DNA from: Rickettsiales bacterium
GTDB taxonomy: Bacteria > Pseudomonadota > Alphaproteobacteria > Rickettsiales > UBA3002
Direction: 5' to 3'
Assembly (NCBI GenBank): GCA_021300075.1
Contig: JAJTIB010000012.1
Span: 1-36,403, forward strand
DNA: 36,403 bases
In this document: positions 162 through 20,345 of the stretch, one piece after another
How the letters are laid out: every line of letters starts with the position of its first letter
Numbering within the stretch: the stretch's first letter is position 1
Position numbers and translations under genes: made by a program
Notes under the pieces: generated by a model
What the model was told of the DNA's origin: nothing
The model's database searches: none
The model's input: the letters and a program-made list of their open reading frames with translations, nothing else

Positions 162-219
162 CTTGAAAACTGCCGAGGTGGCAACGCCTCCGTGAGTTCG
201 AATCTCACCTCTTCCGCCA
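162..219 (+). other. tRNA-Ser(UGA)-like 3' fragment (anticodon loop to CCA); candidate att core, not an intact tRNA
   Basis: Elements read:
- CTTGAAA anticodon-loop-like heptamer (162-168).
- Long variable-arm hairpin GAGGTG/CGCCTC (176-190).
- T arm GTGAG-TTCGAAT-CTCAC (192-208).
- Acceptor 3' strand CTCTTCC, then G, then CCA (209-219).
The expected anticodon stem does not pair (ACCGC vs ACTGC). The upstream D-arm region lacks conserved GG. The 5' acceptor candidate GTAAGAG (130-136) pairs at only 6 of 7 positions. Confidence 0.6.
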
Positions 220-5026: not shown

Positions 5027-5815
5027 ATGCCATTTCCTGAGAGGGAGTATTATTCACTGGAGCATTTAACGCGGCGATGGGCAGTCACTTTGGAAGAAGT
5101 GCAACATGCAATCGCCACGGGAAAACTTATTGCCTCCGCTTGGCTTCAACCCACCTACGCTTACACGGTGACAGAATATTCCCCTGATGAAGCGCGTCGA
5201 TCCGCACCGCATCCGCTTGAAGGATACGTCTGTGTTGCGCCAGAATCCTGCCGAATCCTGTTCTCGCGTGGCAGTGTCGGGCGGCGCAAGTTCCCCACCC
5301 GCGAAGAAAATTGCTTTCACATGATTGTCGAGCATTTGGACAAAGTGGAACTTTGCGTCAGCGATTTGGTGATACTTAATGAGGATCTGCGGCAATTCGA
5401 AAAACTGCATAATTTAGCCGCGCATAACCCCTGCAAAATAATTAGTGTACATAAAATCAAAACCACCGCTTCATCCATAGTTCACAAGCCTTTCAGCCAG
5501 CAGAATGATTGCCGCGTGGTGGCCTTAAATGGCTACCGCTTCAACTTCGGTGACATTCAGGCCGCTATCATCCGCCAGCTGCTCGCCGCTTCCAATACCG
5601 ATAATCCGTGGGTGCATGGGAAAACTCTACTCGCAAATGCGGGATCAACTTCGATGGTGATGCGCGATGCGTTCCGTCACCAACCAAACTGGAAGGAATT
5701 GATAGCAGCCGATGGGCGCGGATATTACCGCCTGAGTCCTACCTGTAGCCCTATACAAGCCCTAGGTGAGTCACATGCGACACACACGGAGCCTTATTCA
5801 AGAACTAATCAATGA
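5027..5815 (+). CDS. Putative DNA-binding regulator (N-terminal excisionase/MerR-like HTH, C-terminal winged-helix-like), family unknown
   Basis: - 262 aa, divergent from the S24 gene.
- The N-terminal YSLEHLTRRWAVTLEEVQHAIATGKL segment resembles AlpA/Xis-type HTHs.
- The C-terminal ...WKELIAADGRGYYRLS segment resembles the end of OmpR-type winged helices.
- No confident family assignment. Confidence 0.45.
   Translation: MPFPEREYYSLEHLTRRWAVTLEEVQHAIATGKLIASAWLQPTYAYTVTEYSPDEARRSAPHPLEGYVCVAPESCRILFSRGSVGRRKFPTREENCFHMIVEHLDKVELCVSDLVILNEDLRQFEKLHNLAAHNPCKIISVHKIKTTASSIVHKPFSQQNDCRVVALNGYRFNFGDIQAAIIRQLLAASNTDNPWVHGKTLLANAGSTSMVMRDAFRHQPNWKELIAADGRGYYRLSPTCSPIQALGESHATHTEPYSRTNQ
5747..5765 (-). 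repeat. Inverted copy of the 19-bp element CTAGGGCWWGTATAGGGCT (partner at 4362-4380)
   Basis: The reverse complement of 5747-5765 is CTAGGGCTTGTATAGGGCT. The plus strand at 4362-4380 is CTAGGGCAAGTATAGGGCT, so 17 of 19 positions are identical. Confidence 0.7.
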
Positions 5816-5826
5816 TGTTCGAACAT
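5815..5826. promoter_or_regulatory. Palindrome ATGTTCGAACAT (copy 4), candidate operator upstream of a promoter-like sequence
   Basis: Perfect 12-bp palindrome overlapping the last base of the 262-aa gene's stop codon. It lies 6 bp upstream of the TTGAAA -35-like hexamer. Confidence 0.5.
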
Positions 5827-5831
5827 GTTAG

Positions 5832-5859
5832 TTGAAATTTAACCACACTCAGTTATGAT
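5832..5859 (+). promoter_or_regulatory. Candidate promoter TTGAAA-N16-TATGAT at the left edge of the metal island
   Basis: TTGAAA at 5832-5837 and TATGAT at 5854-5859. The predicted start site falls near the ATG at 5867 (MKKVIL...), so the mRNA could be leaderless or have a very short leader. Confidence 0.3.
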
Positions 5860-6187
5860 GCGTGTCATGAAAAAAGTTATTCTTTCACTATTTATTGCTC
5901 TTTCGCTGCTTGTTGCGCCCATCGCACATGCTGCTGGCATGAATTGTGAGGGCGATAACTGCCAGATGACTGAGCAATCGAAGAAACAGTCCAAGAGCGA
6001 AAAGCAGGATGATGGCAAAATGGCTAATGCTGGTCACCACTGCTGCTGCCCTCATGTATCTTCCATACCTAACCTGACTGTGGCTGAACCAATGAAAGTT
6101 TCCAGCCGCACGGTTTTCGTTCTTGAGCAGGATGCCACAACATCCGTAGTGGTCGGACCACCACTCAAACCACCCTCCCACGCTTAA
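5855..6187 (+). CDS. Small secreted Cys/His-containing protein (CzcI-position protein)
   Basis: - Signal peptide MKKVILSLFIALSLLVAPIAHA.
- HHCCCPH cluster.
- C-terminal LKPPSHA.
- It sits directly upstream of the OMF gene, as czcI does in the Cupriavidus czc operon.
- The real start may be the ATG at 5867. Confidence 0.6.
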   Translation: MMRVMKKVILSLFIALSLLVAPIAHAAGMNCEGDNCQMTEQSKKQSKSEKQDDGKMANAGHHCCCPHVSSIPNLTVAEPMKVSSRTVFVLEQDATTSVVVGPPLKPPSHA

Positions 6188-6288
6188 TTCCATAAAGCAG
6201 GCTTGCGCCTGAAAGAGTGCCTATCCAGGTGCTCTGAGGTCGCATGTCCTTTTGTATTTATCCAAGGAATTAAGTGTGAGAACTCCCG

Positions 6289-7617
6289 ATGCCAAACCCA
6301 TATAAGCTCCCCGTGTGGCTGCTCTGCGCCACCATGCTAACCAGTGCGCCTGCTTACGCTGAACCAGAAAAGCAAACCGACACACCGCCACCTGCTGCTG
6401 TGGCTGCACCTATGAAGGCCGCTGGCTTTTCGCTGGATGATGCGATTGCCAAGGCACTCGTACAGTCCCCACGTTTGAAAGCCTTCGGCAGTGGCGTTGC
6501 GGCTGCAAAGGGAGAACAGCGGCAAGCTGGGGCATGGGTAAACCCCGAAGTAGGTGTGGAAGCGGAGAACGTTGCGGGTCAAGGTGCATATAAAGGCTTC
6601 GACTCGGCGGAAGTGACGGTTGGGGTCACGCAGGAAATTACCATCGGCGGGAAGATTTCGGCACGGGAGAGCATTGCGGGTAAAGGGCTGGAAATCGCTT
6701 CGCTCGATGAACAGGCCGCAACACTAGATGTTATCCGTGATGTTACCACCGCCTATGCGGATGTGGTGGCAGCAGAAGAAAATGTGCGCCTTGCCACCGA
6801 GCAGAAAGAGCTGGCTGTGGATGTACTGAAATCTGTAAGCGTGCGCGTGGGAGCAGCCGCTGCGCCGTTGATTCAGAAAAGCCGTGCAGAGGTGGAACGC
6901 TCCACTGCCACCATCGCGCTTGATAAGGCGAACCGTGAGCGTGATATTTCCCGCAAAAAACTGGCCGCACTGATGGGAGAAGAACGCTTCACCCTTCCGC
7001 TTGATAGCGCGGCGTTCTATGCCATTGCAAAGCCAGAGGCTGCATCGCTGGAAGAAAAGCTGAAAGCCAACCCTGATCTGGTGAAGCTGAATAGCAGCTT
7101 GGAGCAATCGAAAGCACGGCTGGAACTGGAACAAGCCAATGCCATTCCTGACCCGCGTTTGAGCGTGGGCCTGCGCGACTTCCGTGATAGCGGCGATCAG
7201 GCATTTATCGTTGGCGTGTCGCTGCCCATCCCCGTGTTCAATGCCAATCGTGGTAATATCGAGAAAGCGCGGCACGAGGTCAGCCGCACGGAAATGGATA
7301 ACCGCCAGCTGGCACTCAACACTAGCGCGGATTTAACACAGGCGCATGAGCGTATGGAAAACGCCTATGTGCAGGCAGAAACACTCAAAACCGAGATTTT
7401 ACCTTCCGCCGATAAAGCCTTTCGGCTGGCGCGGGAGGGCTACGGCTTAGGACGTTTCCCCTACCTCGAAGTGCTTGACGCGCAGCGTAGCCTGTTTGGG
7501 GTAAAACAACAGCAGATCGAAGCGATACGCGAATTTCATACCGCCAAGGCGCAAGTGGAACGGTTGACCGCCACACGCCTCAGCGCATTACAAAAATCAG
7601 GAGAGAACCATGAATAA
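6289..7617 (+). CDS. czcC: Outer membrane efflux factor, TolC/CzcC family
   Basis: 442 aa with a signal peptide. It has the two-repeat helical/beta-barrel OMF pattern, sits first in the RND tripartite operon, and overlaps the adaptor gene start. Confidence 0.8.
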   Translation: MPNPYKLPVWLLCATMLTSAPAYAEPEKQTDTPPPAAVAAPMKAAGFSLDDAIAKALVQSPRLKAFGSGVAAAKGEQRQAGAWVNPEVGVEAENVAGQGAYKGFDSAEVTVGVTQEITIGGKISARESIAGKGLEIASLDEQAATLDVIRDVTTAYADVVAAEENVRLATEQKELAVDVLKSVSVRVGAAAAPLIQKSRAEVERSTATIALDKANRERDISRKKLAALMGEERFTLPLDSAAFYAIAKPEAASLEEKLKANPDLVKLNSSLEQSKARLELEQANAIPDPRLSVGLRDFRDSGDQAFIVGVSLPIPVFNANRGNIEKARHEVSRTEMDNRQLALNTSADLTQAHERMENAYVQAETLKTEILPSADKAFRLAREGYGLGRFPYLEVLDAQRSLFGVKQQQIEAIREFHTAKAQVERLTATRLSALQKSGENHE

Positions 7618-8734
7618 GCGCAACCTCATTATATTAACACTGCTGCTGGCCATTGCTGGCGGGGCATATCTCACGCTTGGCGGGGATGCAAAAGAACCCG
7701 CAGCGGAGAATCATGCCCCCGCTGATAAAGACGAGCATGGCCACGGCGATGAGCATAAAGATGACCATGCCGAAGGCGGCGATCACGGGCATGGTGACAA
7801 GGATGAACACGCGCACGGCGATGAACATGGCCACGACCATGCGGAAGCCAAACCTGCTGCCGATGAACATGGCGAAGCCGATGAGCATGGGCATGGCGGT
7901 GAAGAAGGCGGTCATGATGAAGGAAGCAAAATCAGCGACAATGCGGTGAAGAACCTGAATATCGAGATTCTGCAAGCTGGCAGCGCGATGGTGCGGGAAA
8001 CCGTCAGCGTCAGTGGCCGCGTAACCCTGAACCAGAACACTACCGCGCAAGTGAAAGCCCGCTTCCCCGGTGTAATTCGCAGTGTGCTGAAAGAACCTGG
8101 TGAAGTGGTCAAAGCTGGCGACACGCTGGCAACGGTGGAGAGCAACGACAGTCTACAAGTCTATGCGGTGAAGTCACCTGTTACTGGCACTATCATCACT
8201 CGCAATGCCAGTGTCGGTGAACTGGCGGCGGATACGCCATTATTTGCGGTGGCGGATTTAAGCAAGCTGTGGGCGGAGTTGTTCATTTTCTCGAAAGATG
8301 GCGAGAGGCTGAAAGCTGGCCAGAAAGTCCGCATCCAGTGCCTTGATGATCCCGTGAATACCGAGTCCTCCATTGCGCTGGTGCTGCCTACCGCAGAAGC
8401 CTCAAGCCAGACGGTAGTGGCGCGTGCGGTGATCGAGAATGCCGATAACCACTGGCGTTCGGGCATGAATATCCGCGGCGATGTTGTGCTGTCGGAAAAA
8501 GAAGCCCCGCTTGCCGTGAAAACCGAAGCTATCCAGCGCATGGAAGGCAACGCGGTGGTGTTTGTGCGCGAAGATGGCGGCACTTACAAAGCGCAGCCCG
8601 TGGAAACTGGCATGAGCGATGCGACGTGGACGGAAATCAAAAGCGGCCTCACGGCTGGCCAGCATTACGTCGCTAAAAACAGCTTCGTGGTGAAAGCCGA
8701 CATCGGCAAATCCGGTGCGGAACACGAACACTAG
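7610..8734 (+). CDS. czcB: RND periplasmic adaptor (membrane fusion protein) with His-rich N-terminal region
   Basis: N-terminal anchor, then about 70 aa of HGHGDEH-type repeats. After that come the typical MFP lipoyl and beta-barrel segments (GDTLATVES...VKSPVTGTI). Confidence 0.8.
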   Translation: MNKRNLIILTLLLAIAGGAYLTLGGDAKEPAAENHAPADKDEHGHGDEHKDDHAEGGDHGHGDKDEHAHGDEHGHDHAEAKPAADEHGEADEHGHGGEEGGHDEGSKISDNAVKNLNIEILQAGSAMVRETVSVSGRVTLNQNTTAQVKARFPGVIRSVLKEPGEVVKAGDTLATVESNDSLQVYAVKSPVTGTIITRNASVGELAADTPLFAVADLSKLWAELFIFSKDGERLKAGQKVRIQCLDDPVNTESSIALVLPTAEASSQTVVARAVIENADNHWRSGMNIRGDVVLSEKEAPLAVKTEAIQRMEGNAVVFVREDGGTYKAQPVETGMSDATWTEIKSGLTAGQHYVAKNSFVVKADIGKSGAEHEH

Positions 8735-8752
8735 AATCTAGGGGATAGAGCC

Positions 8753-11700
8753 ATGATTGAACGTATTTTAGGGTTTTCCCTTCATCACCGATACCTAATC
8801 GCACTGCTTACATTGGCGGTGGCGGTGTTCGGTATGTACTCACTTAAAAATCTGCCGATTGATGCCGTGCCAGACATCACCAACAATCAGGTGCAGATCA
8901 ACACCGTTGCCTCCGCGTTTTCGCCGATGGAAGTGGAAAAGCAGGTGACATTCCCCGTGGAAACCGCACTGGCGGGTATTCCTGGTCTTGAATATACCCG
9001 CTCGATTTCACGCAACGGATTTTCTCAGGTGACTGCCGTATTCCGCGATGACGTGGATATTTATTTCGCACGCGCTCAGGTGAATGAACGTATTGCGGAA
9101 GCAAAAGAGAGTCTGCCTGAAGGCGTTGACCCGAAGATGGGCGCAATCTCGACTGGCCTTGGCGAAATTTACATGTGGACGGTGGAATATGAACAGCCAC
9201 GCGGCAAAGGCGCAGACATAAAAGATGGCAAGGCTGGCTGGCAATCCGATGGTAGCTACCTCACGCCCGAAGGCCAGCGCATGAACTCGGATGTCGAACT
9301 GGCTTCCTACCTCCGCACGGTGCAGGACTGGATTATCCGCCCTCAGCTGAAAGGCGTGAAGGGTGTGGCGGGTGTCGATGCGATTGGCGGCTATGTGAAG
9401 CAATACCATGTGCAGCCTAACCCTGAAAAACTGGTGGCGCTTGGCCTGAGTTTCTCGGATGTGGTCAATGTACTGGAGCGCAACAATACCAGCATTGGTG
9501 CAGGCTACATCGAGCGCAGCGGCGAAGCCTATGTGGTGCGTGCGGATGGGCGTATCGAGAATGCCGAGCAGATCGGTAATATCGTGGTGGCTAACCGTGG
9601 CGGTGTTACCATTTATTTGAAAGACATCGCTACCGTTGGCATCGGCAAGGAACTCCGCACGGGTTCGGCTTCTGAGAATGGCTATGAAGTTGTGGTTGGC
9701 ACGGCGCTCATGCTGATTGGCGAGAATAGCCGCACCGTATCGCAAGCGGTGGACGAGAAGATCACGGAGATTAACAAGTCGCTGCCCGAAGGTATCCACG
9801 CCAAAACGGTGTTGAATCGTACCAATCTAGTAGATCGCACCATCGGCACGGTGCAGACGAACCTCATCGAAGGCGCGTTGCTCGTCATCGTGATTCTGTT
9901 TTTATTGCTGGGTAACTTCCGCGCCGCGCTGATTACTGCGCTCGTCATACCGCTTTCCATGCTCATGACCAGCATGGGCATGATTCGCGCTGGCATCAGC
10001 GGCAACCTCATGAGCCTTGGTGCGCTCGATTTCGGGCTGATTGTAGATGGCGCGGTGATTATCACTGAGAATTGCCTGAGCCGCTTGGCGCACCGCCAGC
10101 ACCATGAAGGCAGGATACTGACCCTGCAAGAACGCTTGCATGAGGTGATGGTGGCCAGCCGTGAGATGATTCAGCCTTCTGTGTTCGGTCAGGCGATTAT
10201 CATCATGGTGTATATCCCGCTGCTGACATTCAGCGGTGTGGAAGGCAAGATGTTCGAGCCGATGGCGATGACAGTGATTTTTGCCCTGATTGCTGCATTT
10301 GTGCTGTCCCTAACTTTTGTTCCCGCCATGATTGCCATTTTTGTGAAAGGCAACGTGGAGGAAAAAGAAAGCCGCATTATCCAAAAAACCAAAGGCTGGT
10401 ATGAACCCGCTTTGCATTGGGCATTGCGTTCGCCGCTGAAAATCATCGGCGCGGCAACGGGTGGTTTTGTGCTCTCACTCGTGCTGTTTTCCACGATGGG
10501 GCAAGAATTTATTCCGACGCTCGATGAAAAAGACATCGCCATGCACGCGATGCGGATTCCTTCTACTTCGCTCACGCAGTCGCAGGAATTGCAATTTGCC
10601 GTGGAAAAAGCAGTGAGTAGCGTGTCGGAAGTAAAGTTTGTTTTCTCTAAAACTGGCACGGCAGAAATGGCTGCTGATCCGATGCCGCCCAACGTATCCG
10701 ACACGTTCATTATCCTGAAAGACAAAGACCAGTGGCCTGATTCCAGTATCGAAAAGTCAGAAATTATTGCGAAAATAAACAAGGCTGTATCTGATGTTCC
10801 AGGGAACAACTACGAATTCACCCAACCGATTCAGATGCGTTTCAACGAACTGATTTCGGGCGTGCGTTCCGATGTGGCAGTGAAGATTTACGGCGATGAC
10901 TTCGGCGTGATGGAGAAAACCGCCGCCCAGTTGGTGCAAACGCTGAAATCCGTTGAAGGCAGCGCGGATGTGAAGATGGAGCAAACCAGCGGCCTTCCCA
11001 TGCTGGAAGTGAAGCTGGATAAAAACGCCATCTCCCGTTATGGCCTGAACGTCAGCGATGTGCTGGATGTGCTTTCGATTGCAGTGGGTGGGCGCGAGGC
11101 TGGCTTGGTGTTCCAAGGGGATCGCCGCTTCGATATTCTGGTACGCTTGCCAGATACCATGCGGCAAGACCTCACCGTGTTGGAAAACCTGCCCGTGTTA
11201 CTTCCTGTCGATGATGACAATATGGCCGACCGCATTGGTGGCCAACCACACACGCGCCCAGCCTATATCCCCCTCAAGCAGGTGGCGAAGCTGGAAATCA
11301 CCGACGGGCTAAACCAAATCAGCCGTGAAAACGGCAAACGCCGCATGGTGGTTCAAGCCAACGTGCGTGGGCGTGACATCGGCTCGTTCGTGAAAGACGC
11401 GCAAGCCGCTATCGGCAGCAAGGTAGAGATTCCCGCTGGCTACTGGCTGGAATGGGGTGGGCAGTTCAAAAACCTTGAAGAAGCCAAGGCGCGGCTCGGT
11501 GTTGTAGTTCCCGCCTGCTTCTTCATGATTTTCCTACTGCTGTTCACTGCACTCGGCTCGGTCAAACAAGCCTTGCTGGTGTTTTCTGGTGTGCCGCTGG
11601 CACTCACGGGCGGCATTATCACCCTCTGGTTGCGCGGTATGCCGTTCTCTATTTCGGCGGCGGTGGGCTTGATTGCGCTTTCAGGTGTGGCCGTGCTGAA

Positions 11701-12001
11701 CGGGCTGGTGATGATTACTCGCATCAACCAGCTGGTGCGTGAAGGTATTGAGGCGAACACGGCCATTATCGAAGGTGCGCTTTCCCGCTTCCGCCCCGTA
11801 CTGATGACCGCGCTCGTTGCTTCCTTGGGCTTTGTGCCGATGGCGATTGCCACTGGTGCTGGCGCGGAAGTGCAAAAACCACTGGCGACAGTGGTGATCG
11901 GCGGATTGATTACCGCAACCATCCTTACGTTGCTGGTGCTGCCCGCCATTTACAAACGGTTCAACCTCGCCCGCGACCTGCTAGCGAAGGAGATACTGTG
12001 A
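8753..12001 (+). CDS. czcA: Heavy-metal efflux RND transporter, CzcA-type
   Basis: 1082 aa with 12-TM RND architecture. The TM4 motif DFGLIVDGAVIITEN matches the divalent-cation HME pattern DFG-DGA-(V)EN, not the CusA/SilA pattern A-x5-D-x6-EN. Confidence 0.85.
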   Translation: MIERILGFSLHHRYLIALLTLAVAVFGMYSLKNLPIDAVPDITNNQVQINTVASAFSPMEVEKQVTFPVETALAGIPGLEYTRSISRNGFSQVTAVFRDDVDIYFARAQVNERIAEAKESLPEGVDPKMGAISTGLGEIYMWTVEYEQPRGKGADIKDGKAGWQSDGSYLTPEGQRMNSDVELASYLRTVQDWIIRPQLKGVKGVAGVDAIGGYVKQYHVQPNPEKLVALGLSFSDVVNVLERNNTSIGAGYIERSGEAYVVRADGRIENAEQIGNIVVANRGGVTIYLKDIATVGIGKELRTGSASENGYEVVVGTALMLIGENSRTVSQAVDEKITEINKSLPEGIHAKTVLNRTNLVDRTIGTVQTNLIEGALLVIVILFLLLGNFRAALITALVIPLSMLMTSMGMIRAGISGNLMSLGALDFGLIVDGAVIITENCLSRLAHRQHHEGRILTLQERLHEVMVASREMIQPSVFGQAIIIMVYIPLLTFSGVEGKMFEPMAMTVIFALIAAFVLSLTFVPAMIAIFVKGNVEEKESRIIQKTKGWYEPALHWALRSPLKIIGAATGGFVLSLVLFSTMGQEFIPTLDEKDIAMHAMRIPSTSLTQSQELQFAVEKAVSSVSEVKFVFSKTGTAEMAADPMPPNVSDTFIILKDKDQWPDSSIEKSEIIAKINKAVSDVPGNNYEFTQPIQMRFNELISGVRSDVAVKIYGDDFGVMEKTAAQLVQTLKSVEGSADVKMEQTSGLPMLEVKLDKNAISRYGLNVSDVLDVLSIAVGGREAGLVFQGDRRFDILVRLPDTMRQDLTVLENLPVLLPVDDDNMADRIGGQPHTRPAYIPLKQVAKLEITDGLNQISRENGKRRMVVQANVRGRDIGSFVKDAQAAIGSKVEIPAGYWLEWGGQFKNLEEAKARLGVVVPACFFMIFLLLFTALGSVKQALLVFSGVPLALTGGIITLWLRGMPFSISAAVGLIALSGVAVLNGLVMITRINQLVREGIEANTAIIEGALSRFRPVLMTALVASLGFVPMAIATGAGAEVQKPLATVVIGGLITATILTLLVLPAIYKRFNLARDLLAKEIL

Positions 12002-12030
12002 TTTTTTCAACCAACCCTAAAGGAGACTCT

Positions 12031-12291
12031 ATGACCGACCTGAAATCCCTGCTTGCTGCATCTGCCCTCGCGCTAGTGATTGGTACTGCCGCACCTGCCA
12101 TTGCTGGCGAACACAAAGCTGAAGATGGCAAGAAGATGGAAAAGCACGAACACAAAGACGGTGACCATAAAGATCACGGCAAGCATGAAGGTCATAAAGA
12201 TGGCGATCATCACGACCACAAGGAAGGCGATGGTCACGATCATGATAAGGAAAAAGCTGGCAAGCCCGAAGCAAAAAGCAAAGGCCAGTAA
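12031..12291 (+). CDS. Secreted His/Asp/Lys-rich small protein (putative periplasmic metal-binding)
   Basis: RBS AAAGGAGA before the ATG at 12031. Signal peptide MTDLKSLLAASALALVIGTAAPAIAG. Mature part built of HKDGDH/HEGHKDGDHHDH repeats. Confidence 0.6.
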   Translation: MTDLKSLLAASALALVIGTAAPAIAGEHKAEDGKKMEKHEHKDGDHKDHGKHEGHKDGDHHDHKEGDGHDHDKEKAGKPEAKSKGQ

Positions 12292-12383
12292 ATGAATACG
12301 GCCAGAGGCATGGTGCTTCTGACCGTAGGTGCGACGGGAAGGAACAAGTTTAGCGACATGACCTTCCCGCCGCGCTCCCCAAA

Positions 12384-12402
12384 CCTGACGGGTTTCGTCA
12401 GG
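12384..12402 (+). terminator. Weak hairpin CCTGACG-GGTTT-CGTCAGG after the His-rich gene
   Basis: 7-bp perfect stem, but the trailing sequence (AATGTTTA) is only weakly T-rich. Confidence 0.25.
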
Positions 12403-12430
12403 AATGTTTAACCATTCTATAGGTAGAACC

Positions 12431-12865
12431 ATGAAAAAAGCTATAATCATCAGCACAGCACTGATACTTTTATCAGCTTGTGCATCTCAACCACCCCAAA
12501 CACTCGACCAAAAACTATCTGAGTCCACCACCGCAGCCGACCGAAAAGAAACGCTGCGTCTAGCGTGCCTGAATGAAGCGGAGTGGCCAGCGAGCTTGCA
12601 AAAGGTTCGTACCACTGGACGGCACGGCACGCAACAACGCCAACGTCTGAAGCGCACGCCCGAAATCAGAGAAATGAAAACGCTCTGCCGCCAGATGGAC
12701 GATCTCACCACGGTTGATGCGGAAGAAAAGCTGCCGCCAAAAGAGCTTGCTTCCGCATGCGCTGCCAAAGTTGCGGATAAAAAGCAGAAAGAAGGCAAAG
12801 GCTGGGCTGAACATGCAGACCGCATCGCGCATATCTGCAAGGAAATGACAGGTAAAAAACTGTGA
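12431..12865 (+). CDS. Hypothetical lipoprotein
   Basis: Lipobox LILLSAC at the N-terminus (MKKAIIISTALILLSACAS). Five further Cys. The stop overlaps the GTG start of the CDF gene (GTGA). Confidence 0.55.
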   Translation: MKKAIIISTALILLSACASQPPQTLDQKLSESTTAADRKETLRLACLNEAEWPASLQKVRTTGRHGTQQRQRLKRTPEIREMKTLCRQMDDLTTVDAEEKLPPKELASACAAKVADKKQKEGKGWAEHADRIAHICKEMTGKKL

Positions 12866-13470
12866 GTTCCTGCCACGACCATTGCAATGCCAGCGAGCAA
12901 TCAGACGTATCCGCAGCTTACCGCAAGGTGCTATGGGTATGTTTGATTGCCAACGCGGTGATGTTCGTGGCGCAAATGGTGGCAAGCTATGCCGCGCACT
13001 CTGTTTCACTGCTGGCTAATAGCGCAGATTTCTTCTCGGACGCTGCGAATTACGGCATAAGCCTCTATGTCTTGAATCTATCCCTGCGCCAGAAAGCCAA
13101 AGCCTCGCTGTTTAAGGGCGTTAGTTTGGGCTTAGTGGGGCTTTGGGTGGCGTTTGAGACGTTGCACCACGCGCTACAACCCGAACTACCAGAACCCCTT
13201 ATTATGGCCGCTATCAGTGTGGTGGCGTTGGCCGTAAATGTCGGCTGTGCAATGCTTCTCTACAAATACCGTGGTGGCGATAGCAACCGAGAATCGGTTT
13301 GGATTTGCAGCCGTAACGATGCCATCGGCAATATCGCCGTGATGATCGCCGCAGCTGGCGTGTTCGCTTCTGGCACCATCTGGCCAGATATTATCGTCGC
13401 CGCCATCCTAGGCTGGTTGGCGATCAGCGGCGCGATGCGAATTATTAAATCAGCTAAAAGAGAGCTATAA
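12862..13470 (+). CDS. Cation diffusion facilitator family transporter, transmembrane domain only
   Basis: - 202 aa with about six hydrophobic segments.
- CDF-like TM2 and TM5 motifs (SLLANSADFFSDAANY; NDAIGNIAVMIAA).
- N-terminal CHDHC.
- No ~80-100-aa C-terminal cytoplasmic domain. Confidence 0.7.
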   Translation: MSSCHDHCNASEQSDVSAAYRKVLWVCLIANAVMFVAQMVASYAAHSVSLLANSADFFSDAANYGISLYVLNLSLRQKAKASLFKGVSLGLVGLWVAFETLHHALQPELPEPLIMAAISVVALAVNVGCAMLLYKYRGGDSNRESVWICSRNDAIGNIAVMIAAAGVFASGTIWPDIIVAAILGWLAISGAMRIIKSAKREL

Positions 13471-13537
13471 AAAAGCCCCGAACCCAATATGATTTCCAAA
13501 TCCTACAAAAAAATTGAATCGTAATGAATGCCAAAAG

Positions 13538-13558
13538 ATGAAAACATTTGAAAAACAT
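13538..13558 (+). promoter_or_regulatory. Direct repeat ATGAAAACAT / TTGAAAAACAT upstream of the cop module
   Basis: Two GAAAA(A)CAT units about 10-11 bp apart in an AT-rich intergenic region. This is the layout used by OmpR-family response regulators. No match to a known cop/cus box is claimed. Confidence 0.2.
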
Positions 13559-13582
13559 AAAATAAAGCCTACAATCTATCCT

Positions 13583-13966
13583 ATGAAAATCTTCGTCAGC
13601 ATATTTATGGTTCTGGCACTCGTTATGACAACGAGCTTTCCTGCCACGTCCCATGCGATGATGCCTCATGATTCTGCGAAAGTAGAAAAAGCTGAAGCCT
13701 CCTCAGAACACGGTGATTGTCACAAGCACGCTAAGGCCGAGCAATCCGATAAAACGGCACAGAACGATAAAGAATCTGGCAAATGCTGTGATAAAGGTAT
13801 GTGCAAGTGCATCGGAAGCACCTGTCATAGCGGTCTGTCGAAGATTTTTGGTAATGGCAGCGAATCCCTCTTTCGTTTGACTGCCAGCAAAAGCAGCTTC
13901 GGCTTCACCAATGATGTGGTGGAATCCGCGCTTTCCAATCGCTTAAAACGCCCTCCCAAAGCCTAG
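13583..13966 (+). CDS. Small secreted Cys-rich protein (second member of the CzcI-position-like pair)
   Basis: - Signal peptide MKIFVSIFMVLALVMTTSFPATSHA.
- Lys/Glu/Gln-rich spacer.
- Cluster CCDKGMCKCIGSTCH.
- C-terminal LKRPPKA.
- Directly upstream of the multicopper oxidase gene. Confidence 0.6.
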   Translation: MKIFVSIFMVLALVMTTSFPATSHAMMPHDSAKVEKAEASSEHGDCHKHAKAEQSDKTAQNDKESGKCCDKGMCKCIGSTCHSGLSKIFGNGSESLFRLTASKSSFGFTNDVVESALSNRLKRPPKA

Positions 13967-14036
13967 TCCTGTAGCTGTTACGCCACCAGTGCGCCTTCGC
14001 GCATGGTGTCATTTCAACACAAATCAAGGATTAGTT

Positions 14037-15662
14037 ATGCGAACACATCATCTTGGGATGATGGCGTTGCTGATGGTAGGGTTTCTAGCCACTCCTGCAC
14101 ACGCCAAAACATCCGAATACTCGCTTACGATTGAGCAGCTTCCTGTAAACATTACAGGCAAACCAATCGAAAAAATCACCGTGAATGGGAGCATACCAGC
14201 CCCCACGCTTCGCTTCACCGAAGGCGATGAAGCGGTGATCCACGTCACCAATAAAATGGATGAACCCACCTCAATCCACTGGCATGGCCTGCTACTGCCC
14301 GACGCAATGGACGGTGTAACAGGTTTTGGAGGCTATAAGGCGATAGAGCCAGGTACGACCTTTACCTACCGTTTCCCCGTAAGGCAAACTGGCACCTATT
14401 GGTATCACTCGCACACCAGCGGTCAGGAACAGGACGGGCTTTATGGCTCGATCATCACTTCGCCTAAAGGCAAAGACCCGATAGCGGCGGATCGTGATTA
14501 TGTCGTCGTGCTTTCCGATTTCTCGGAGGAGCATTCCAGTGACATCATGGCGAACCTCAAAATGTCATCGGATTACTACGCCAATGCACGACTTACGGTG
14601 GGTGATTTTTTCAAAGATGTCAGCAAGAGCAGTTTAGGCAAGGCGTGGAAGGATGCCAAAGATTGGGGCGATATGCGGATGATGCGTACCGACCTTGCTG
14701 ATGTCACGGGCTATACGTTCCTCACCAATGGCAAATCGCCAGCACAAAACTGGACGGGTATTTTTAAGCCAGGTGAGAAAGTTCGCCTTCGCTTCATTAA
14801 CGCCTCTGCCATGTCTTTCTTCGATGTACGGATTCCTGGACTGAAGATGAGCGTGGTGCAAGCCGATGGTCAGGGCATCGAGCCCGTTACAGTAGATGAG
14901 TTTCGCTTTGCACCTGCGGAAACCTACGATGTAATTGTCACGCCGAAGGATGACAAAGCCTACACCATCGCCGCCGAACCAATTGACCGCACGGGCTTTG
15001 CCATTGGCACGCTGGCAACCGCTGAAGGCATGAAAGGTGAAATCCCGCCAGCTCGTCCCCGCGCATTGCTCTCTATGGGCGATATGAACATGGAGATGAT
15101 GATGAAGGACGACCCCGATATGGAAATGACTCCTGCCGATATGATTAGCGGCTGGGCAAAAACGGGAACGCCTGAAGGTCAGAAAGCTCTTTCATACGCT
15201 GATCTGCGCTATGTAGGCGTGCAAAAAGACCAACGCCAGCCGCAGCGCAACATCGACGTGCGTTTGGGCGGTAATATGGAACGCTACATCTGGACGATTA
15301 ACGAGAAGAAATTCTCGGAGGCCGAACCCATCCGCCTGAAATATGGCGAGCGGGTGCGGCTTTCCTTCACCAACGAAACCATGATGGCGCACCCGATGCA
15401 CCTGCATGGAATGTTCGTGCAGTTGGAAAACGGCCAGCCTGCGGCGAAGCTGCCCAACAAGCACACGGTGATTGTGCCGCCTGGGGGCTCTTACTCTGTG
15501 CTGGTGACGGCGGATGAAATCGGCGAGTGGGCGTTCCACTGCCATCTGCTCTACCACATGGCCAGCGGCATGATGCGTCAGGTCGTTGTCGCAAAGCTAG
15601 ACGCAGCGGATATGCCTGCCAGCACCGAAACCAAAACTAGCGGAGGTAACCATGCACATTAA
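14037..15662 (+). CDS. pcoA: Copper-resistance multicopper oxidase (CopA/PcoA family)
   Basis: Copper-site motifs HWHGL, WYHSH, HPMHLHG and HCHLLYHMASGMM. Met-rich segment (MGDMNMEMMMKDDPDMEM). RBS AAGGA before the ATG at 14037. Confidence 0.85.
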   Translation: MRTHHLGMMALLMVGFLATPAHAKTSEYSLTIEQLPVNITGKPIEKITVNGSIPAPTLRFTEGDEAVIHVTNKMDEPTSIHWHGLLLPDAMDGVTGFGGYKAIEPGTTFTYRFPVRQTGTYWYHSHTSGQEQDGLYGSIITSPKGKDPIAADRDYVVVLSDFSEEHSSDIMANLKMSSDYYANARLTVGDFFKDVSKSSLGKAWKDAKDWGDMRMMRTDLADVTGYTFLTNGKSPAQNWTGIFKPGEKVRLRFINASAMSFFDVRIPGLKMSVVQADGQGIEPVTVDEFRFAPAETYDVIVTPKDDKAYTIAAEPIDRTGFAIGTLATAEGMKGEIPPARPRALLSMGDMNMEMMMKDDPDMEMTPADMISGWAKTGTPEGQKALSYADLRYVGVQKDQRQPQRNIDVRLGGNMERYIWTINEKKFSEAEPIRLKYGERVRLSFTNETMMAHPMHLHGMFVQLENGQPAAKLPNKHTVIVPPGGSYSVLVTADEIGEWAFHCHLLYHMASGMMRQVVVAKLDAADMPASTETKTSGGNHAH

Positions 15663-16386
15663 GCACTTACTAATGGCACTCAGCCTCACCACTGCGCTTG
15701 CACAGCCTGCATTCGCGGTGGATCATTCTGCCCACGCAGATATGGCCGCAGAGCATGGTGGCGGTATCTTCCACATGTTTCGGCTGGAAACCGATGTTGG
15801 CAGCAATACCGATGGAACGCCGCTTCAAAGCTGGGACTTAGATGGCTGGATCGGCACGGATGAAAACAAACTCTGGATAAAATCAGAGGGTGAGCGTGCC
15901 GATAACAAGCTGGAGAGTGCAGAGTTTTGGGCACTCTATAGCCGCAACATCTCGACATTTTGGGATGCACAGGCAGGTATTCGTTACGATACCAAGCCTG
16001 AATCCACCGCGTACCTGACGCTTGGGTTAAACGGCCTTGCTCCATACTGGTTTGAAACGGAAGCTCATTTATTCGTGAGTGAACATGGCGATGTCACGGC
16101 GCGGCTGCGGCAGGAAAACGACCTCCTGCTAACACAAAAACTGATTTTGCAGCCTTATGTTGAAGTCAATCTCTCGGCGCAGGATGTCCACGAGCAGGAC
16201 ATTGGCGCAGGCGTACCCGACGGCAAGATAGGTCTACAAACACGCTACGAATTCACCCGAAAATTTGCGCCGTATGTGGATGTCCACTATGGCCGAAAAT
16301 TTGGGGAAACCTCATCCATCGCTAAAAGCCATGGCGAGGATAATGACGAATTAGTCGGCTCAATAGGGCTTCGACTGATGTTTTAA
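15652..16386 (+). CDS. pcoB: Copper resistance protein B (CopB/PcoB outer membrane family)
   Basis: 244 aa with a signal peptide and beta-strand-rich, aromatic-ended repeats, ending ...GLRLMF. It is translationally coupled to the oxidase gene (GGAGG RBS inside the oxidase 3' end). Confidence 0.75.
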   Translation: MHIKHLLMALSLTTALAQPAFAVDHSAHADMAAEHGGGIFHMFRLETDVGSNTDGTPLQSWDLDGWIGTDENKLWIKSEGERADNKLESAEFWALYSRNISTFWDAQAGIRYDTKPESTAYLTLGLNGLAPYWFETEAHLFVSEHGDVTARLRQENDLLLTQKLILQPYVEVNLSAQDVHEQDIGAGVPDGKIGLQTRYEFTRKFAPYVDVHYGRKFGETSSIAKSHGEDNDELVGSIGLRLMF

Positions 16387-16412
16387 CAATCAACAACCTA
16401 AAGGAAAATCTC

Positions 16413-17069
16413 ATGAAAAAGCTATTACTGACTACCGCCATGATATTGGCAACCACACCTGTATTCGCGGCTGAATTCACCATCAAGGAAGTCACGGATT
16501 ATGATGCGAAGAAGCAAAACTTCTTCTCACCTGATAAGCTGACTATCCAGCCTGGTGATACTGTCACGTTTGAAAACGTGCAGGATGAAGCACATCAGGT
16601 GATGTTTGTGAGCGTTCCCAAGGGCGTGGATGAAATGATTATGTCACCGATGCAGGAAAAGAAAGGCGACAAGTTCACCTACACTTTCACCGTGCCTGGA
16701 ACCTATAAATATCACTGCCACCCGCATGAAGCACTCGGCATGGATGGGGTGCTGATTGTGGGTGCGCCTTCAAAAGCAGGTGAAACCAAAAATGTGGATC
16801 ACCACAAGCTGACAAAAAAACTGGAAGGTGCTGAAGCCGCAGGAGGCGTTGCTGCCACTGGCAAGGTGGTGAGCGCAGACGCAGCAAAAAACACCATCAA
16901 AATCAAGCATGACCCGATCAAGTCGCTTGGCTGGCCTGTGATGACGATGACGTTCACTGCCGATAATGGTGTTAATCTTTCTACCTACAAGGAAGGTGAT
17001 GCCGTGTCCTTCACGCTGAAACCAGCAGGCAAGGATGATTACACGATTTCTACTATCAAAAAGAACTAA
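16413..17069 (+). CDS. Cupredoxin (plastocyanin/pseudoazurin-like) fused to a CusF-like copper-binding domain
   Basis: Signal peptide. Type-1 copper motif YKYHCHPHEALGMDG with an upstream His. The C-terminal 70 aa align by eye to E. coli CusF (IKIKHDPIKSLGWPVMTMTF vs ITIHHDPIAAVNWPEMTMRF). Confidence 0.7.
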   Translation: MKKLLLTTAMILATTPVFAAEFTIKEVTDYDAKKQNFFSPDKLTIQPGDTVTFENVQDEAHQVMFVSVPKGVDEMIMSPMQEKKGDKFTYTFTVPGTYKYHCHPHEALGMDGVLIVGAPSKAGETKNVDHHKLTKKLEGAEAAGGVAATGKVVSADAAKNTIKIKHDPIKSLGWPVMTMTFTADNGVNLSTYKEGDAVSFTLKPAGKDDYTISTIKKN

Positions 17070-17092
17070 CCACCAACCAAAGGAGAATTGCT

Positions 17093-17440
17093 ATGAAGAA
17101 AATTATCGCATTAATATTTGCCACTATTATCGGCATCTTTTCAATGAGTGCTTATGCAGAAACTAGCTTACTTAAAAAAGTCGAATCGCAATATGTTTGT
17201 ATGATTAACAACAAGCTGTTCGATAAAGTTCAGATTCCTACTAGTGTAAACGGAAAGACATATTACGGCTGCTGCCCGATGTGCAAAGAGAAGTTGGAAA
17301 AGAGTTCGGAAGCACGCAGCGCAACTGATCCAGTAAGTAATAAGCGAGTCGATAAAGCCTCGGCAATAATTGGCGCAGAGGCTGATGGTACAATTCATTA
17401 TTTTGAAAACGAAACCAATCTAAAACTCTACAAAAAATAA
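17093..17440 (+). CDS. Secreted YHS/TRASH-like domain protein
   Basis: Signal peptide. C-x22-C-C-x2-C arrangement (CMINNKLF...GKTYYGCCPMCKEKL) typical of YHS-type metal-binding domains. Confidence 0.55.
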   Translation: MKKIIALIFATIIGIFSMSAYAETSLLKKVESQYVCMINNKLFDKVQIPTSVNGKTYYGCCPMCKEKLEKSSEARSATDPVSNKRVDKASAIIGAEADGTIHYFENETNLKLYKK

Positions 17441-17504
17441 TTTTACCGAGTGAATCTTCACTTTAACCTTGGATTAACCGACTAACCAACCAAAGGAGAT
17501 TGTT

Positions 17505-17894
17505 ATGTTTAAGAAATTATTGCCTATCGTTATGCTCATTTTTGTAGCCGCATGTTCTAATACGCAAGGTGGTTCAATGTCTGGCATGGATATGAAAATG
17601 CCATGTTGTGAAAAATGCGAGTGCTGTAAGGATGGGAAATGCGGTGAGTGCTGCAAATCTGGCGAATGCAAGTGCTGTAAAGAAGGCATGTGTAAAATGT
17701 GCATGGGTAAAATGGAAGGCATGTCTTCCATGAAAGAAGGAATGCAATGCCCAATGATGAAAAATGGCGCAAAAGATGGCAAGCCATGCGGATGCTGTGG
17801 GGGTATGATGAAGGACGGAATGAATATGAAGTCCTCTCCCGCACCTAAAACAACGAGTGATGCAGATCACAAAGCCCATCATCCACAACAGTAA
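17505..17894 (+). CDS. Cys/Met-rich lipoprotein (metallothionein-like, exported)
   Basis: Lipobox IFVAAC. The mature part has repeated CC-K-x-G-x-C units (CCEKCECCKDGKCGECCKSGECKCCKEGMCKMC), many Met, and a C-terminal His-containing tail. Confidence 0.65.
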   Translation: MFKKLLPIVMLIFVAACSNTQGGSMSGMDMKMPCCEKCECCKDGKCGECCKSGECKCCKEGMCKMCMGKMEGMSSMKEGMQCPMMKNGAKDGKPCGCCGGMMKDGMNMKSSPAPKTTSDADHKAHHPQQ

Positions 17895-17907
17895 CAGGAG
17901 CAACTAG

Positions 17908-18156
17908 ATGACACAGCAACATGACCATTCCAAATGTGGGCATAAAAGCCTGAACTGGTTTTACTCCCATAAAGCTGCATCCTTTGCTCTTATACTCGTA
18001 GCGGTGCTACTGGTTATAGAGCATTGGCAGCACTTGATTTATGCGCTTCCTTATCTGCTTTTGCTGTCATGCCCATTGATGCACTTATTTATGCATCATG
18101 GTCACGGCGGACATGGTACACATGCCCATAACGAAACAAAGGTAGATAAAGAATGA
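17908..18156 (+). CDS. Small membrane protein, DUF2933-like
   Basis: 82 aa with two TM segments and the motif [21 protein letters not shown] recall this pattern from DUF2933 proteins that sit next to copper ATPases. The stop overlaps the ATPase start. Confidence 0.55.
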
Positions 18157-20345
18157 AACACGAAGGTCACTACTGTCATCACGAACATCATGCCAGCCCT
18201 GTAGCTGTTTCACCAGAAGCAGCACAGGGCGAAGGTGTGATGTACACTTGCCCTATGCACCCGCAGGTTAGGCAACCCAAGCCTGGTAATTGCCCGATCT
18301 GCGGAATGGCATTGGAGCCAGAAAAAGTTTCACTGGATGCTGCGCCTAATCATGAACTGATAGATATGACGCGGCGGTTTTGGGTGTCGGCGATTTTGGC
18401 TGCGCCGCTGGCGTTATTCGTCATGGGCGCACATCTACTTCCGAACATTCCGCACGAATGGATGGATTCACCGCTTTCGCATTGGCTCCAAATGCTGGTG
18501 GCAACACCCGTAGTGCTGTGGGGCGGCTGGCCGTTTTTTGTGCGTGCGGTAGATTCCGTTCGTCACCGCAGCCTCAATATGTTTACACTGATCGCGCTGG
18601 GTGTCGGCGTGGCTTATATCTACAGCCTTATCCTCGTATTATTTCCGCAAGCGGTCGCACAATTCTCCGGCGGCATGATGCTGGATGTATATTTCGAGGC
18701 GGCAGCGGTTATCACAGCTCTGGTATTGCTGGGACAAGTGCTTGAGCTTAAAGCCCGCGAGCAATCCAGCAACGCGATGCGGGCATTGCTTGATCTCGCT
18801 CCGAAGATGGCGCGAATCATCCGCGCTGATGGCAAAGAAGAAGATGTGCCATTATCGGAAGTGCATAAAGGCGATGTGCTGCGTGTTCGCCCTGGAGAAA
18901 AAATACCAGTGGATGGGATTGTAATCGTTGGCCATAGCAGTGTCGATCAATCCATGCTCACTGGCGAATCCGTTCCTGTGGAAAAAAGCGCAGGCGATAA
19001 GGTGACGGGCGCAACGCTCAATGGCACGGGTGGCTTCACCATGCGTGCCGAGCGCGTGGGTAATGAAACCATGCTGGCGCAGATCGTGGATATGGTGGCC
19101 AAAGCCCAGCGCACCCGCGCACCGATTCAGCGTATGGCGGATAAGGTATCGGGCTATTTCGTACCAATTGTCGTGCTGGTGGCAATTCTTACTGCCGCTG
19201 CATGGTTTATATGGGGACCAGAACCGAAACTGGCCTATGCCATCGTTAATGCTGTAGCCGTGTTGATTATTGCCTGCCCCTGTGCGCTCGGCCTTGCTAC
19301 GCCCATGTCTATCATTGCAGGCACTGGTCGTGGCGCAATGGCAGGCGTATTGATTAAAAACGCCGAGTCGCTCGAAATCATGGAAAAGGTTGATACGCTG
19401 ATTATCGACAAAACTGGCACGCTGACCGAGGGTAAGCCGAAGCTCATGGAAGTTGTTGTCGCTTCTGGCTTTGACCAAAATGAAGCCCTGCGGTTGGTCG
19501 CCAGCCTTGAACAAAGCAGCGAACATCCACTGGCATCGGCCATTGTCAAAGGCGCACAGGAAAAAGGCATTACGCTTTCTACTGTGCAGAATTTTTCCTC
19601 TACCACTGGCAAAGGCGTACAAGGCACGGTGGGTGGTCATAATGTCGCGCTGGGAAATGCGGCAATGCTAACTTCACTTGGCATGAATGCTGATTCGCTT
19701 GTGCAAGCTGCCGATCAGCTCCGAGCTAAAGGACAAACCGCTATGTTTGCAGCGATTGATGGCAAACCAGCGGCGATTATCAGTGTTGCCGACCCGATCA
19801 AGGCCACCACCCCCGAAGCATTGAAACAGCTAAAAGCCGAAGGATTGCATATCGTGATGCTCACTGGCGACAGCAAAGCCACCGCGAAAGCAATTGCGGA
19901 GCAGCTGGGCATAGATGACTATGAAGCCGAAGTGCTGCCAGAACGCAAAAGCGAGCTGGTGCGGCAATTACAGGAAAAAGGCCGCAAGGTCGCAATGGCG
20001 GGTGATGGGGTGAATGATGCGCCTGCATTAGCGCAAGCGCATGTCGGCATTGCGATGGGAACTGGCACCGATGTCGCGATGGAAAGCGCAGGCGTTACAC
20101 TGGTGAAAGGTGATTTGATTGGCATCGTTCGCGCCCGTCGCTTGAGTCATGCCACGATGAGTAATATCAGGCAGAACCTATTCTTCGCATTCGTCTATAA
20201 TGCGCTGGGCGTGCCTGTTGCCGCTGGCTTGCTCTATCCATTCTTCGGATTGCTTCTAAGCCCCGTGATTGCCAGTGCAGCAATGGTACTGAGTTCGGTG
20301 TCGGTGATTATGAACTCGTTACGACTCAGAAAAGTTAAATTGTAA
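18153..20345 (+). CDS. copA: Cu(I)/Ag(I)-translocating P1B-type ATPase
   Basis: - Motifs CPC ([13 protein letters not shown]), DKTGT and [10 protein letters not shown].
- TM7 YN...P and TM8 [12 protein letters not shown], the P1B-1 Cu(I) signature.
- The N-terminus has a CPMHP...CPICGM metal-binding module instead of a GMTCxxC HMA domain. Confidence 0.9.

Follow-up and report, generated by a model that had tools for sequence, protein, structure and literature searches.

According to reviews of 2020 and 2024, bacterial metallothioneins are cytosolic, Csp1 is exported by the Tat pathway, and PcoE is a periplasmic sponge. Csp1 has also been reviewed as a Cys-thiolate store of Cu(I) that is likely exported to the periplasm, and PcoE/SilE as periplasmic sponges; these proteins are precedents for the concept considered here. 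The gene analysed in this work, with the working name X for both gene and product, is located at positions 17505-17894 of the plus strand of contig JAJTIB010000012.1 of a Rickettsiales bacterium. The whole stretch of 36,403 nucleotides that was analysed is called the window. An earlier note on this DNA had described X as an exported lipoprotein with a metallothionein-like Cys cluster, and its statement that metallothioneins are cytosolic and Csp1 is Tat-exported agrees with the reviews. Judging from the sequence, we lean slightly towards the view that X is a Sec-exported, lipid-anchored, metallothionein-like sponge or buffer for Cu(I) and Ag(I) in the cell envelope. The metals bound would be chiefly Cu(I) and probably Ag(I).

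Metallothioneins (SmtA/BmtA, MymT and yeast Cup1) share several properties with X. It is likewise small, with 16% Cys (39% in its core) arranged as CC, CxC and CxxC, likewise has neither aromatic residues nor a hydrophobic core, and is likewise predicted to be disordered without metal. The low mass, high Cys content, motifs and scarcity of aromatics by which metallothioneins are operationally recognized were all found in X, and the metallothionein-like composition of the mature part (Cys-rich, no aromatics) that the earlier note had claimed was therefore present. X differs from metallothioneins in its predicted export and lipid anchor, its high Met and Lys content and its variable tandem repeats. 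No metallothionein family of Pfam, the bacterial SmtA type included, was matched by X.

Like PcoE and SilE, X is small, probably disordered, predicted to be exported, encoded in copper or silver clusters, equipped with Met/His motifs and a candidate for first-line buffering. There is no sequence similarity between them, and X had no PcoE/SilE match in Pfam or NCBIfam. Unlike X, PcoE and SilE are not known to contain Cys or to carry a lipid anchor. Csp1 (PF03860) is folded in advance as a four-helix bundle and has a Tat signal, whereas X has a Sec/signal peptidase II lipobox and no Pfam Csp match, is predicted to contain hardly any helix and lacks core residues. Behind a signal peptide, the Met-rich relatives of X and the C-terminal part of X itself carry repeats of the MMKDG type, as in the MXKDX repeat proteins (TIGR02953); X did not match the TIGR02953 model, and the best relative, P0094, reached 17.3 bits, below the cut-off of 41. 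No MXKDX proteins that are Cys-rich lipoproteins are known to us. CopG (DUF411) is a periplasmic copper-resistance protein with a folded thioredoxin-like domain and is a precedent for copper in periplasmic Cys clusters. Its CxCC motif occurs three times in X, which has no DUF411 match in Pfam. In function, metallothioneins, PcoE/SilE and Csp1 are the nearest concepts, but by sequence X belongs to none of these families.

General searches gave the same picture. Pfam yielded no match at E values up to 10 with the whole protein, the mature part or three Cys-rich relatives, and two Met-rich relatives gave unrelated matches only. No match to X was present in NCBIfam or PHROGs. A profile search of the PDB returned chance matches with E >1 (DNMT1 and a palmitoyltransferase). 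Translated searches (tblastn) of phage and plasmid records with X found nothing, to which the low-complexity filter may have contributed. Modelling with AlphaFold on the family alignment gave a mean predicted local distance difference test score (pLDDT) of 60 and a predicted template modelling score of 0.29, with three short helices of low confidence beyond the signal peptide. A poor model is expected for a chain that would need metal or disulfides to fold. In the literature no exported, periplasmic or lipidated metallothionein was found; the coverage was incomplete, so that an earlier description is possible.

The X gene and its predicted product

The segments of X are as follows.

17493-17498, plus strand: Shine-Dalgarno sequence AAGGAG, 6 nt before the ATG (read from the sequence)
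17505-17555, plus strand: putative signal peptide, residues 1-16 MFKKLLPIVMLIFVAA, and lipobox Cys17 (V-A-A-C), by the PS51257-type rule
17556-17603, plus strand: putative flexible Gly/Ser/Met tether, residues 18-33 SNTQGGSMSGMDMKMP, by composition
17604-17702, plus strand: Cys-rich core, residues 34-66, with CCEKC, three (E/K)CCKxGxC and then KMC, by motif positions
17703-17747, plus strand: Met-rich segment, residues 67-81 MGKMEGMSSMKEGMQ, by composition; conserved in alignments A1 and A2
17748-17828, plus strand: second Cys/Met module, residues 82-108 CPMMKNGAKDGKPCGCCGGMMKDGMNM, common to the Met-rich subfamily
17829-17894, plus strand: Ser/Pro/Thr-rich spacer, His tail (...DADHKAHHPQQ) and stop codon, by sequence and alignment A1

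The reading frame starts with ATG and encodes 129 amino acids (aa), including 19 Met, 19 Lys and 16 Gly. The 18 Cys residues are at positions 17, 34, 35, 38, 40, 41, 46, 49, 50, 55, 57, 58, 63, 66, 82, 95, 97 and 98. The other genes of the window encode on average 0.93% Cys and 2.94% Met, and against these the binomial probability of at least 18 Cys in 129 residues is 5e-16. The mature protein would comprise 113 aa (about 12.0 kDa, isoelectric point about 8.3) with 18 Cys, 17 Met and 17 Lys, and contains no F, W or Y and no L, I or V. The earlier note had claimed about 110 aa and 18 Cys; the length was slightly underestimated, and the Cys number is right if the lipidated residue is counted, as 17 Cys remain once Cys17 is set aside.

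The core holds 13 Cys in 33 residues. It contains exactly three CCKxGxC units, starting at residues 40, 49 and 57, which lie in tandem as (E/K)CCKxGxC and are encoded by three direct repeats of 24 nt (17619-17642, 17646-17669 and 17670-17693). Three CxCC motifs start at residues 38, 55 and 95, and the mature part has in total five CC, three CxC and six CxxC. The protein ends with DHKAHHPQQ; three types of tail occur among the homologues, two of them with H-x-x-HH. The repeated CC-K-x-G-x-C units, the many Met residues and the His-containing tail noted before were thus all recovered by composition and motif counts. Within the tether, pLDDT was below 50 at residues 21-29. In the second Cys/Met module, C82 is invariant in alignment A1. 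This module recurs in relative P0023 behind a different N-terminal part, and P0047 and P0107 are further members of the Met-rich subfamily.

X is a genuine, conserved small gene. The ratio of nonsynonymous to synonymous substitution rates (dN/dS) was 0.05-0.22 against 15 homologues, and the synonymous rate was saturated in three further comparisons. The nearest homologue, in locus L012 (95% aa identity), differed from X by 3/2/28 nucleotides at the three codon positions. The low dN/dS and the excess of third-position substitutions indicate that the plus-strand frame of X is under purifying selection. Three open reading frames of 95-109 aa on the minus strand overlap X (17474-17782, 17557-17844 and 17574-17903). 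They were rejected as composition artefacts, being by-products of the Cys/Lys/Met codon composition; the substitutions fall at third positions of the plus frame.

Among 5.8 billion proteins, a word-indexed search detected 57 clusters related to X, each of them unnamed or annotated as 'hypothetical'. When 1.84 billion representatives were searched exhaustively with a profile, 55 proteins reached E <=1e-3 and 22 reached <=1e-10; their lengths range from 59 to 197 aa. The homologues derive from metagenomes and a few metagenome-assembled genomes (MAGs) of uncultured Alphaproteobacteria. Freshwater and groundwater samples, for example SRR2568014 and ERR977417, are among their sources. The pooled mature family sequences consist of 16% C, 14% K, 10.6% M and 10.3% G, with 0.3% aromatics and 2.2% L+I+V.

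The N-terminus of X, MFKKLLPIVMLIFVAAC, satisfies the lipoprotein rule of the PROSITE PS51257 type, with the box V-A-A-C and Cys17. This rule requires K or R within the first seven residues, an uncharged h-region, Cys at position 15-35 and the box pattern [LIVMFWSTAG]2-[LIVMFYSTAGCQ]-[AGS]-C. X has K within the first seven residues, and the six positions before the box are uncharged. The rule was passed by 102 of the 106 family members; of the four that failed, two were start-codon mis-calls with a box further in and two had no box. All 40 sequences of alignment A1 have A16 and C17, and relative P0094 matches Pfam LPAM_1 above the cut-off. A twin-arginine motif is absent from the signal of X, and a search with X from which the signal peptide had been removed found the same lipoprotein family only and no cytosolic relatives. 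The export signal proposed earlier is therefore present and widely kept, and from it we infer that the product is exported and lipid-anchored at Cys17.

The lipid Cys is followed by Ser in X; of 104 members, 100 have A, T or S at this place and one has Asp. In the Lol rule of E. coli, which is unestablished for these bacteria, the +2 residue of a lipoprotein steers its sorting. By this rule, Ser in X and A/T/S in the family would predict sorting to the outer membrane, away from an inner-membrane pump.

Cysteine variation in the X family

The number of mature Cys varies from 5 to 24 across the family by gain and loss (indels) of repeat units with three Cys, and the number of non-lipid Cys is odd in 74 of 104 members. 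A fixed disulfide architecture would not be expected to tolerate such variation, whereas a thiolate-cluster binder would. An alignment of 105 sequences contained 15 variable columns with a majority of Cys. In these columns 36% of the replacements were Met and 10.5% were His, each about 2.5 times its background frequency, while Lys and Glu were strongly avoided. Envelope proteins bind Cu(I) and Ag(I) through Met, His and Cys; reviews describe such ligation for CusF and PcoE.

Exchange between Cys-rich and Met-rich forms was also seen at the level of the gene. In locus L034 the flanks are 91-97% identical to those in the window, and the X slot is occupied by the Met-rich variant P0047, which has 8 Cys and 45% identity to X. 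The neighbouring YHS-like and DUF2933 genes are 67% and 51% identical to their counterparts in the window, the three genes together occupying 3751-4709 of L034, and locus L012 lacks the YHS-like gene. In the window, the GC content at third codon positions (GC3) is 0.38-0.45 from 17093 to 18156, compared to 0.53-0.66 in the surroundings. The YHS-like, X and DUF2933 genes behave as a recombining mosaic cassette of low GC content, in which Cys and Met modules appear to be interchangeable. The variation in Cys number, the replacement of Cys by Met or His and the Met-rich variant in the X slot together favour soft-metal ligation over a disulfide fold.

These results bear on the possibility that X is a protein without a metal function, either a disulfide-cross-linked outer-membrane lipoprotein similar to OmcA, a small Cys-rich outer-membrane lipoprotein of chlamydiae, or a phage moron lipoprotein with an o-spanin-like role in lysis or superinfection exclusion. 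Phages often encode small outer-membrane lipoproteins, and X is prophage-borne, abuts lysis genes in L019, L032 and L033 and is located between tail genes in L037. The variable and often odd Cys numbers and the replacements by Met and His oppose fixed disulfides, however, and X has no match in PHROGs or Pfam. It also occurs in copper clusters on non-phage chromosomal segments (L005-7). Where X is near phage lysis genes, it is convergent to these and co-directional with the metal genes. A non-metal function of this kind is consequently considered very unlikely; the spanin or lysis-gene version was ruled out by the orientation of X and its occurrence outside phages.

Gene neighbourhoods of X

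The window (1-36403) is a prophage-like element with a cargo of about 15 kb of metal-resistance genes on the plus strand (5027-20345), which has the repressor on one side and the lysis module on the other. The prophage-like parts include a replication organiser, and the phage genes on the minus strand encode a lysozyme, a holin of the gene transfer agent (GTA) type, DUF2793, a GTA_TIM/Phage-tail_3 host-specificity protein, a tape measure and a tail tube; the tail genes are RcGTA-like. The metal block begins with an outer-membrane factor, a membrane-fusion protein, an RND pump, a His-rich protein of 97 aa, a lipoprotein and a CDF transporter. It continues with CopL-family, CopA, CopB, cupredoxin+CusF and YHS/TRASH-like proteins, X, DUF2933 and a P-type ATPase. 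The genes referred to below are listed here.

205-1716, minus strand: serine recombinase, in the prophage-like part
4388-4915, minus strand: S24 LexA/cI-type repressor, in the prophage-like part
13514-13966, plus strand: CopL-family protein (NF033807, 40.6 bits against a cut-off of 40), predicted to be exported, 150 aa
13989-15662, plus strand: multicopper oxidase CopA (Pfam/NCBIfam searches)
15652-16386, plus strand: CopB (Pfam/NCBIfam searches)
16413-17069, plus strand: cupredoxin+CusF fusion (Pfam/NCBIfam searches)
17093-17440, plus strand: YHS/TRASH-like protein, predicted to be exported, with a weak CCPMC motif (Pfam TRASH and YHS matches below threshold)
17908-18156, plus strand: DUF2933, small His-rich membrane protein (Pfam PF11666, E 4e-20)
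18153-20345, plus strand: P-type ATPase (P1B-1) for Cu(I)/Ag(I) export, His-rich at the N-terminus and with an HMBD domain (Pfam/NCBIfam)

The YHS/TRASH-like gene (GC3 0.38) is the immediate upstream neighbour of X. The DUF2933 gene follows 13 nt after X and overlaps the start of the ATPase gene by 4 nt; in other bacteria, too, DUF2933 is known to accompany Cu ATPase genes. The ATPase matches the copper-translocating model TIGR01511 with 597 bits, and its translation contains CPC, N-x6-YN-x4-P and M-xx-SS, the signatures of Cu(I)/Ag(I) pumps. The DUF2933 and Cu(I) ATPase genes that had been named as downstream neighbours are therefore in place. A scan for promoters and terminators gave no convincing signal adjoining X, which makes co-transcription with the neighbours probable. 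A megablast comparison of the copper cluster with plasmids gave nothing beyond short matches to multicopper oxidase genes, at about 78-80% identity.

Two further small proteins of the block were observed. A 97-aa protein (11998-12291), encoded directly after the RND pump gene, has a hydrophobic, signal-like N-terminus and HKDGDH / HKEGDGHDH repeats. This protein is a candidate for a His-rich metal binder in the periplasm, and a near-identical copy of its gene occurs in L019. Upstream of the RND efflux genes, a presumably exported protein of 110 aa (5855-6187) has an HHCCCPH motif and a sub-threshold match to DUF2946; its gene is conserved in L015, L016 and L037, where it adjoins that of the outer-membrane factor.

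The CopL-family protein shares with X an 11-residue motif, which it carries as GKCCDKGMCKCIG. As the family is a metal-binding one, the motif counts in favour of X as a metal binder, too. Members of this family (NF033807), like X, are exported small proteins of copLAB-type operons with the motif CCxxGMCKxCxG. X could thus be a CopL-related copper-sensing or regulatory peptide that tunes the expression or activity of neighbouring genes. The comparison of X with the CopL-family protein over the CCxxGMCK(M)CxG motif gave a BLASTP E value of 0.004 and an hhalign probability of 20%, and the upstream protein itself passes the CopL_fam cut-off, while no Pfam family was matched by it at E <=0.01. X does not match the CopL model, however, and differs from the family by having many more Cys, a lipoprotein signal and a position downstream of the oxidase genes. 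A separate CopL gene is already present upstream of the oxidase, and this arrangement is kept in L005, L013, L031 and L034. Variable repeats and the shifting position of X, which is often the last gene of its cluster, also speak against a regulator. Of the alternatives to which we assigned a probability, this one appears the least probable.

For comparison with other genomes, loci were searched with the closer alignment set A2, and the window proteins were then mapped on all loci. Species-representative genomes yielded 19 loci, 17 of them convincing, nearly all in MAGs that bear the label Rickettsiales or Alphaproteobacteria. X is also present on three IMG/VR viral contigs, in two cases with a lysis/tail module beside it. 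The following arrangements were found.

L012, L034: gene order as in the window
L008-11: RND ... MerR-X-DUF2933-ATPase-lysozyme
L015, L017, L021, L027: RND ... X-DUF2933-ATPase, without a lysozyme match
L005-7, L013, L031: CopL-multicopper oxidase-CopB-cupredoxin/CusF-X, no pump match after X; L005-7 are chromosomal and non-phage
L001-4: MerR-(HMA-MauE fusion)-X, then directly Csp/DUF305 genes
L019, L032, L033: X, then directly lysozyme; in L019 MerR-(HMA-MauE) before X
L037: two tail genes with X alone between them, on the opposite strand

At almost all loci X is part of a copper or soft-metal cluster, and the copper context claimed for X thus recurs far beyond the window. The partners vary and include CopL-multicopper oxidase-CopB-cupredoxin/CusF, MerR, the HMA-MauE fusion, DUF2933 with the Cu(I) ATPase, RND pumps and Csp. 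A prophage layout with metal cargo between the repressor and the lysis module recurs in several loci of alphaproteobacterial MAGs. In L037 (6001-6312), X has a position typical of morons, with DUF2793 on one side and the GTA_TIM tail gene on the other; the RND genes lie beyond the lysozyme.

Some details of single loci were recorded as well. A MerR-type regulator and then an HMA-MauE/DoxX fusion membrane protein precede X in L019 and also in L001, with a Csp-family gene nearby (L019 6391-7977; L001 4815-5979 and 7353-7712). The Csp-family genes, at 7353-7712 in L001 and 6391-6747 in L019, belong to the same cargo as X, and the L019 protein has no signal peptide. In L028 (8001-8231), a relative of X lies between prephenate dehydratase and the cytochrome c maturation genes ccmFGH, and in L038 (6001-6300) a relative adjoins chorismate synthase near COX1/CtaA genes. 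Both are distant chromosomal members, and their neighbours prephenate dehydratase and chorismate synthase belong to aromatic amino-acid biosynthesis.

The tight packing of X, DUF2933 and ATPase genes in the window is consistent with X being a dedicated periplasmic partner of the Cu(I) ATPase and DUF2933, i.e. a chaperone that takes Cu(I) from the exit of the pump and passes it on, and not a sink. The same order recurs in L008-L012, L015-L018, L021, L027 and L034. On the other hand, no ATPase or DUF2933 match follows X in L005-7, L013, L019, L031, L032 and L033, and X stands alone in L037. DUF2933-ATPase modules elsewhere are listed without an X-like gene alongside. The Ser/Ala/Thr at +2 predicts sorting to the outer membrane, and the variable number of 3-Cys repeats suits a capacity better than a specific docking surface. 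A dedicated pump partner is therefore considered unlikely. As X is constant and its partners vary, a general role in the envelope is favoured over a dedicated partnership with the ATPase. The earlier note had suggested a sink or a hand-off partner for the pump; the sink is kept as the best reading, but the hand-off is weakened, since X often occurs without the pump.

The redox-associated neighbours raise the possibility that X is a sacrificial thiol or redox buffer, which would either turn Cu(II) into Cu(I) or, as a decoy, take up the non-native disulfides that copper catalyses, so that envelope proteins are spared and storage is secondary. The dense Cys in an oxidising compartment would suit this role. 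The fusion of HMA with MauE/DoxX, a redox-associated membrane family, is located upstream of X in L001-4, L019 and loci of the 104-aa type, and the chromosomal copy in L028 is beside the thiol-redox genes ccmFGH. However, the Met-rich variant with few Cys in the X slot fits an exchange of ligands instead, the replacement of Cys by Met and His fits ligation, and a recycling reductase is not evident within the window. We regard this role as unlikely too, and slightly more so than that of a pump partner.

Possible role in the cell envelope

Under the favoured reading of X as an envelope copper sponge, the prolipoprotein would be exported unfolded via Sec, modified with diacylglycerol at Cys17 and cleaved by signal peptidase II. 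The linker of residues 18-33 would tether it to a membrane, the outer membrane being likelier in view of the Ser at +2. As it has no hydrophobic core, the mature protein would be disordered until metal arrives. The Met-rich stretches could serve as fast, oxidation-proof sites for the first contact with Cu(I), and the 13-Cys core (34-66) together with the CPMM...CGCC module (82-98) could form clusters of Cu(I) with thiolates. If Cu-thioneins are a guide, each chain would take up about 8-13 Cu(I). X would thus be a rapid, high-capacity buffer that shields the envelope while the multicopper oxidase, the CusF-domain protein, the RND pump and the Cu ATPase dispose of the metal. Copper might be released slowly or handed to the oxidase, the RND pump or the CusF-domain protein. 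That X is lipidated, where it is located, that it binds metal and in what stoichiometry, and that it acts as a sponge are all points that we infer from sequence data.

Several observations weigh against this reading. The periplasm is oxidising, and the 17 free Cys of X could be oxidised by DsbA. No characterised metal-binding protein was found to be similar to X in sequence or structure. The distant family members in L028, L038 and L039 are in housekeeping neighbourhoods, and no copper genes were present within about 6 kb of them. The counts of copper contexts are not independent, because most loci represent one lineage of related prophages, and the analysis of Cys replacements was made with related sequences in a low-complexity alignment. 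In addition, the MerR-type regulator found by X in some loci has a CueR-like CPGD...ADCP loop, and a Cys occupies the position that we take to be equivalent to Ser77 of CueR. This Cys and the MauE/DoxX neighbour are hints that X may be specific for another metal or may have a redox partner. Relatives beside the MerR-type regulator could bind divalent soft metals (Hg, Cd, Pb) instead of Cu(I).

A more far-reaching interpretation would make X the first natural envelope-anchored metallothionein, with a Cu(I)/Ag(I) capacity tuned by repeats and with exchange of Cys and Met modules in a YHS-like-X-DUF2933 mini-cassette, carried as lysogenic-conversion cargo by temperate phages of uncultured Alphaproteobacteria from freshwater and groundwater. 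We consider the chance of this being correct in full as just short of even.

The periplasmic copper buffers covered in reviews are either free of Cys (PcoE/SilE) or pre-folded bundles (Csp1). A disordered Cys/Met protein that is exported via Sec and tethered by lipid, as proposed for X, would show that sequestration in thiolate clusters also works in the oxidising envelope, and it raises the question of how thiols stay available there. The natural Cys-rich and Met-rich variants in nearly identical operons are a ready-made test of ligand choice against redox environment. Engineered metallothioneins displayed on the cell surface are used in bioremediation, and X would be their natural counterpart. 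The carriage of X by phages suggests that copper tolerance is transferable by lysogeny among bacteria of water systems.

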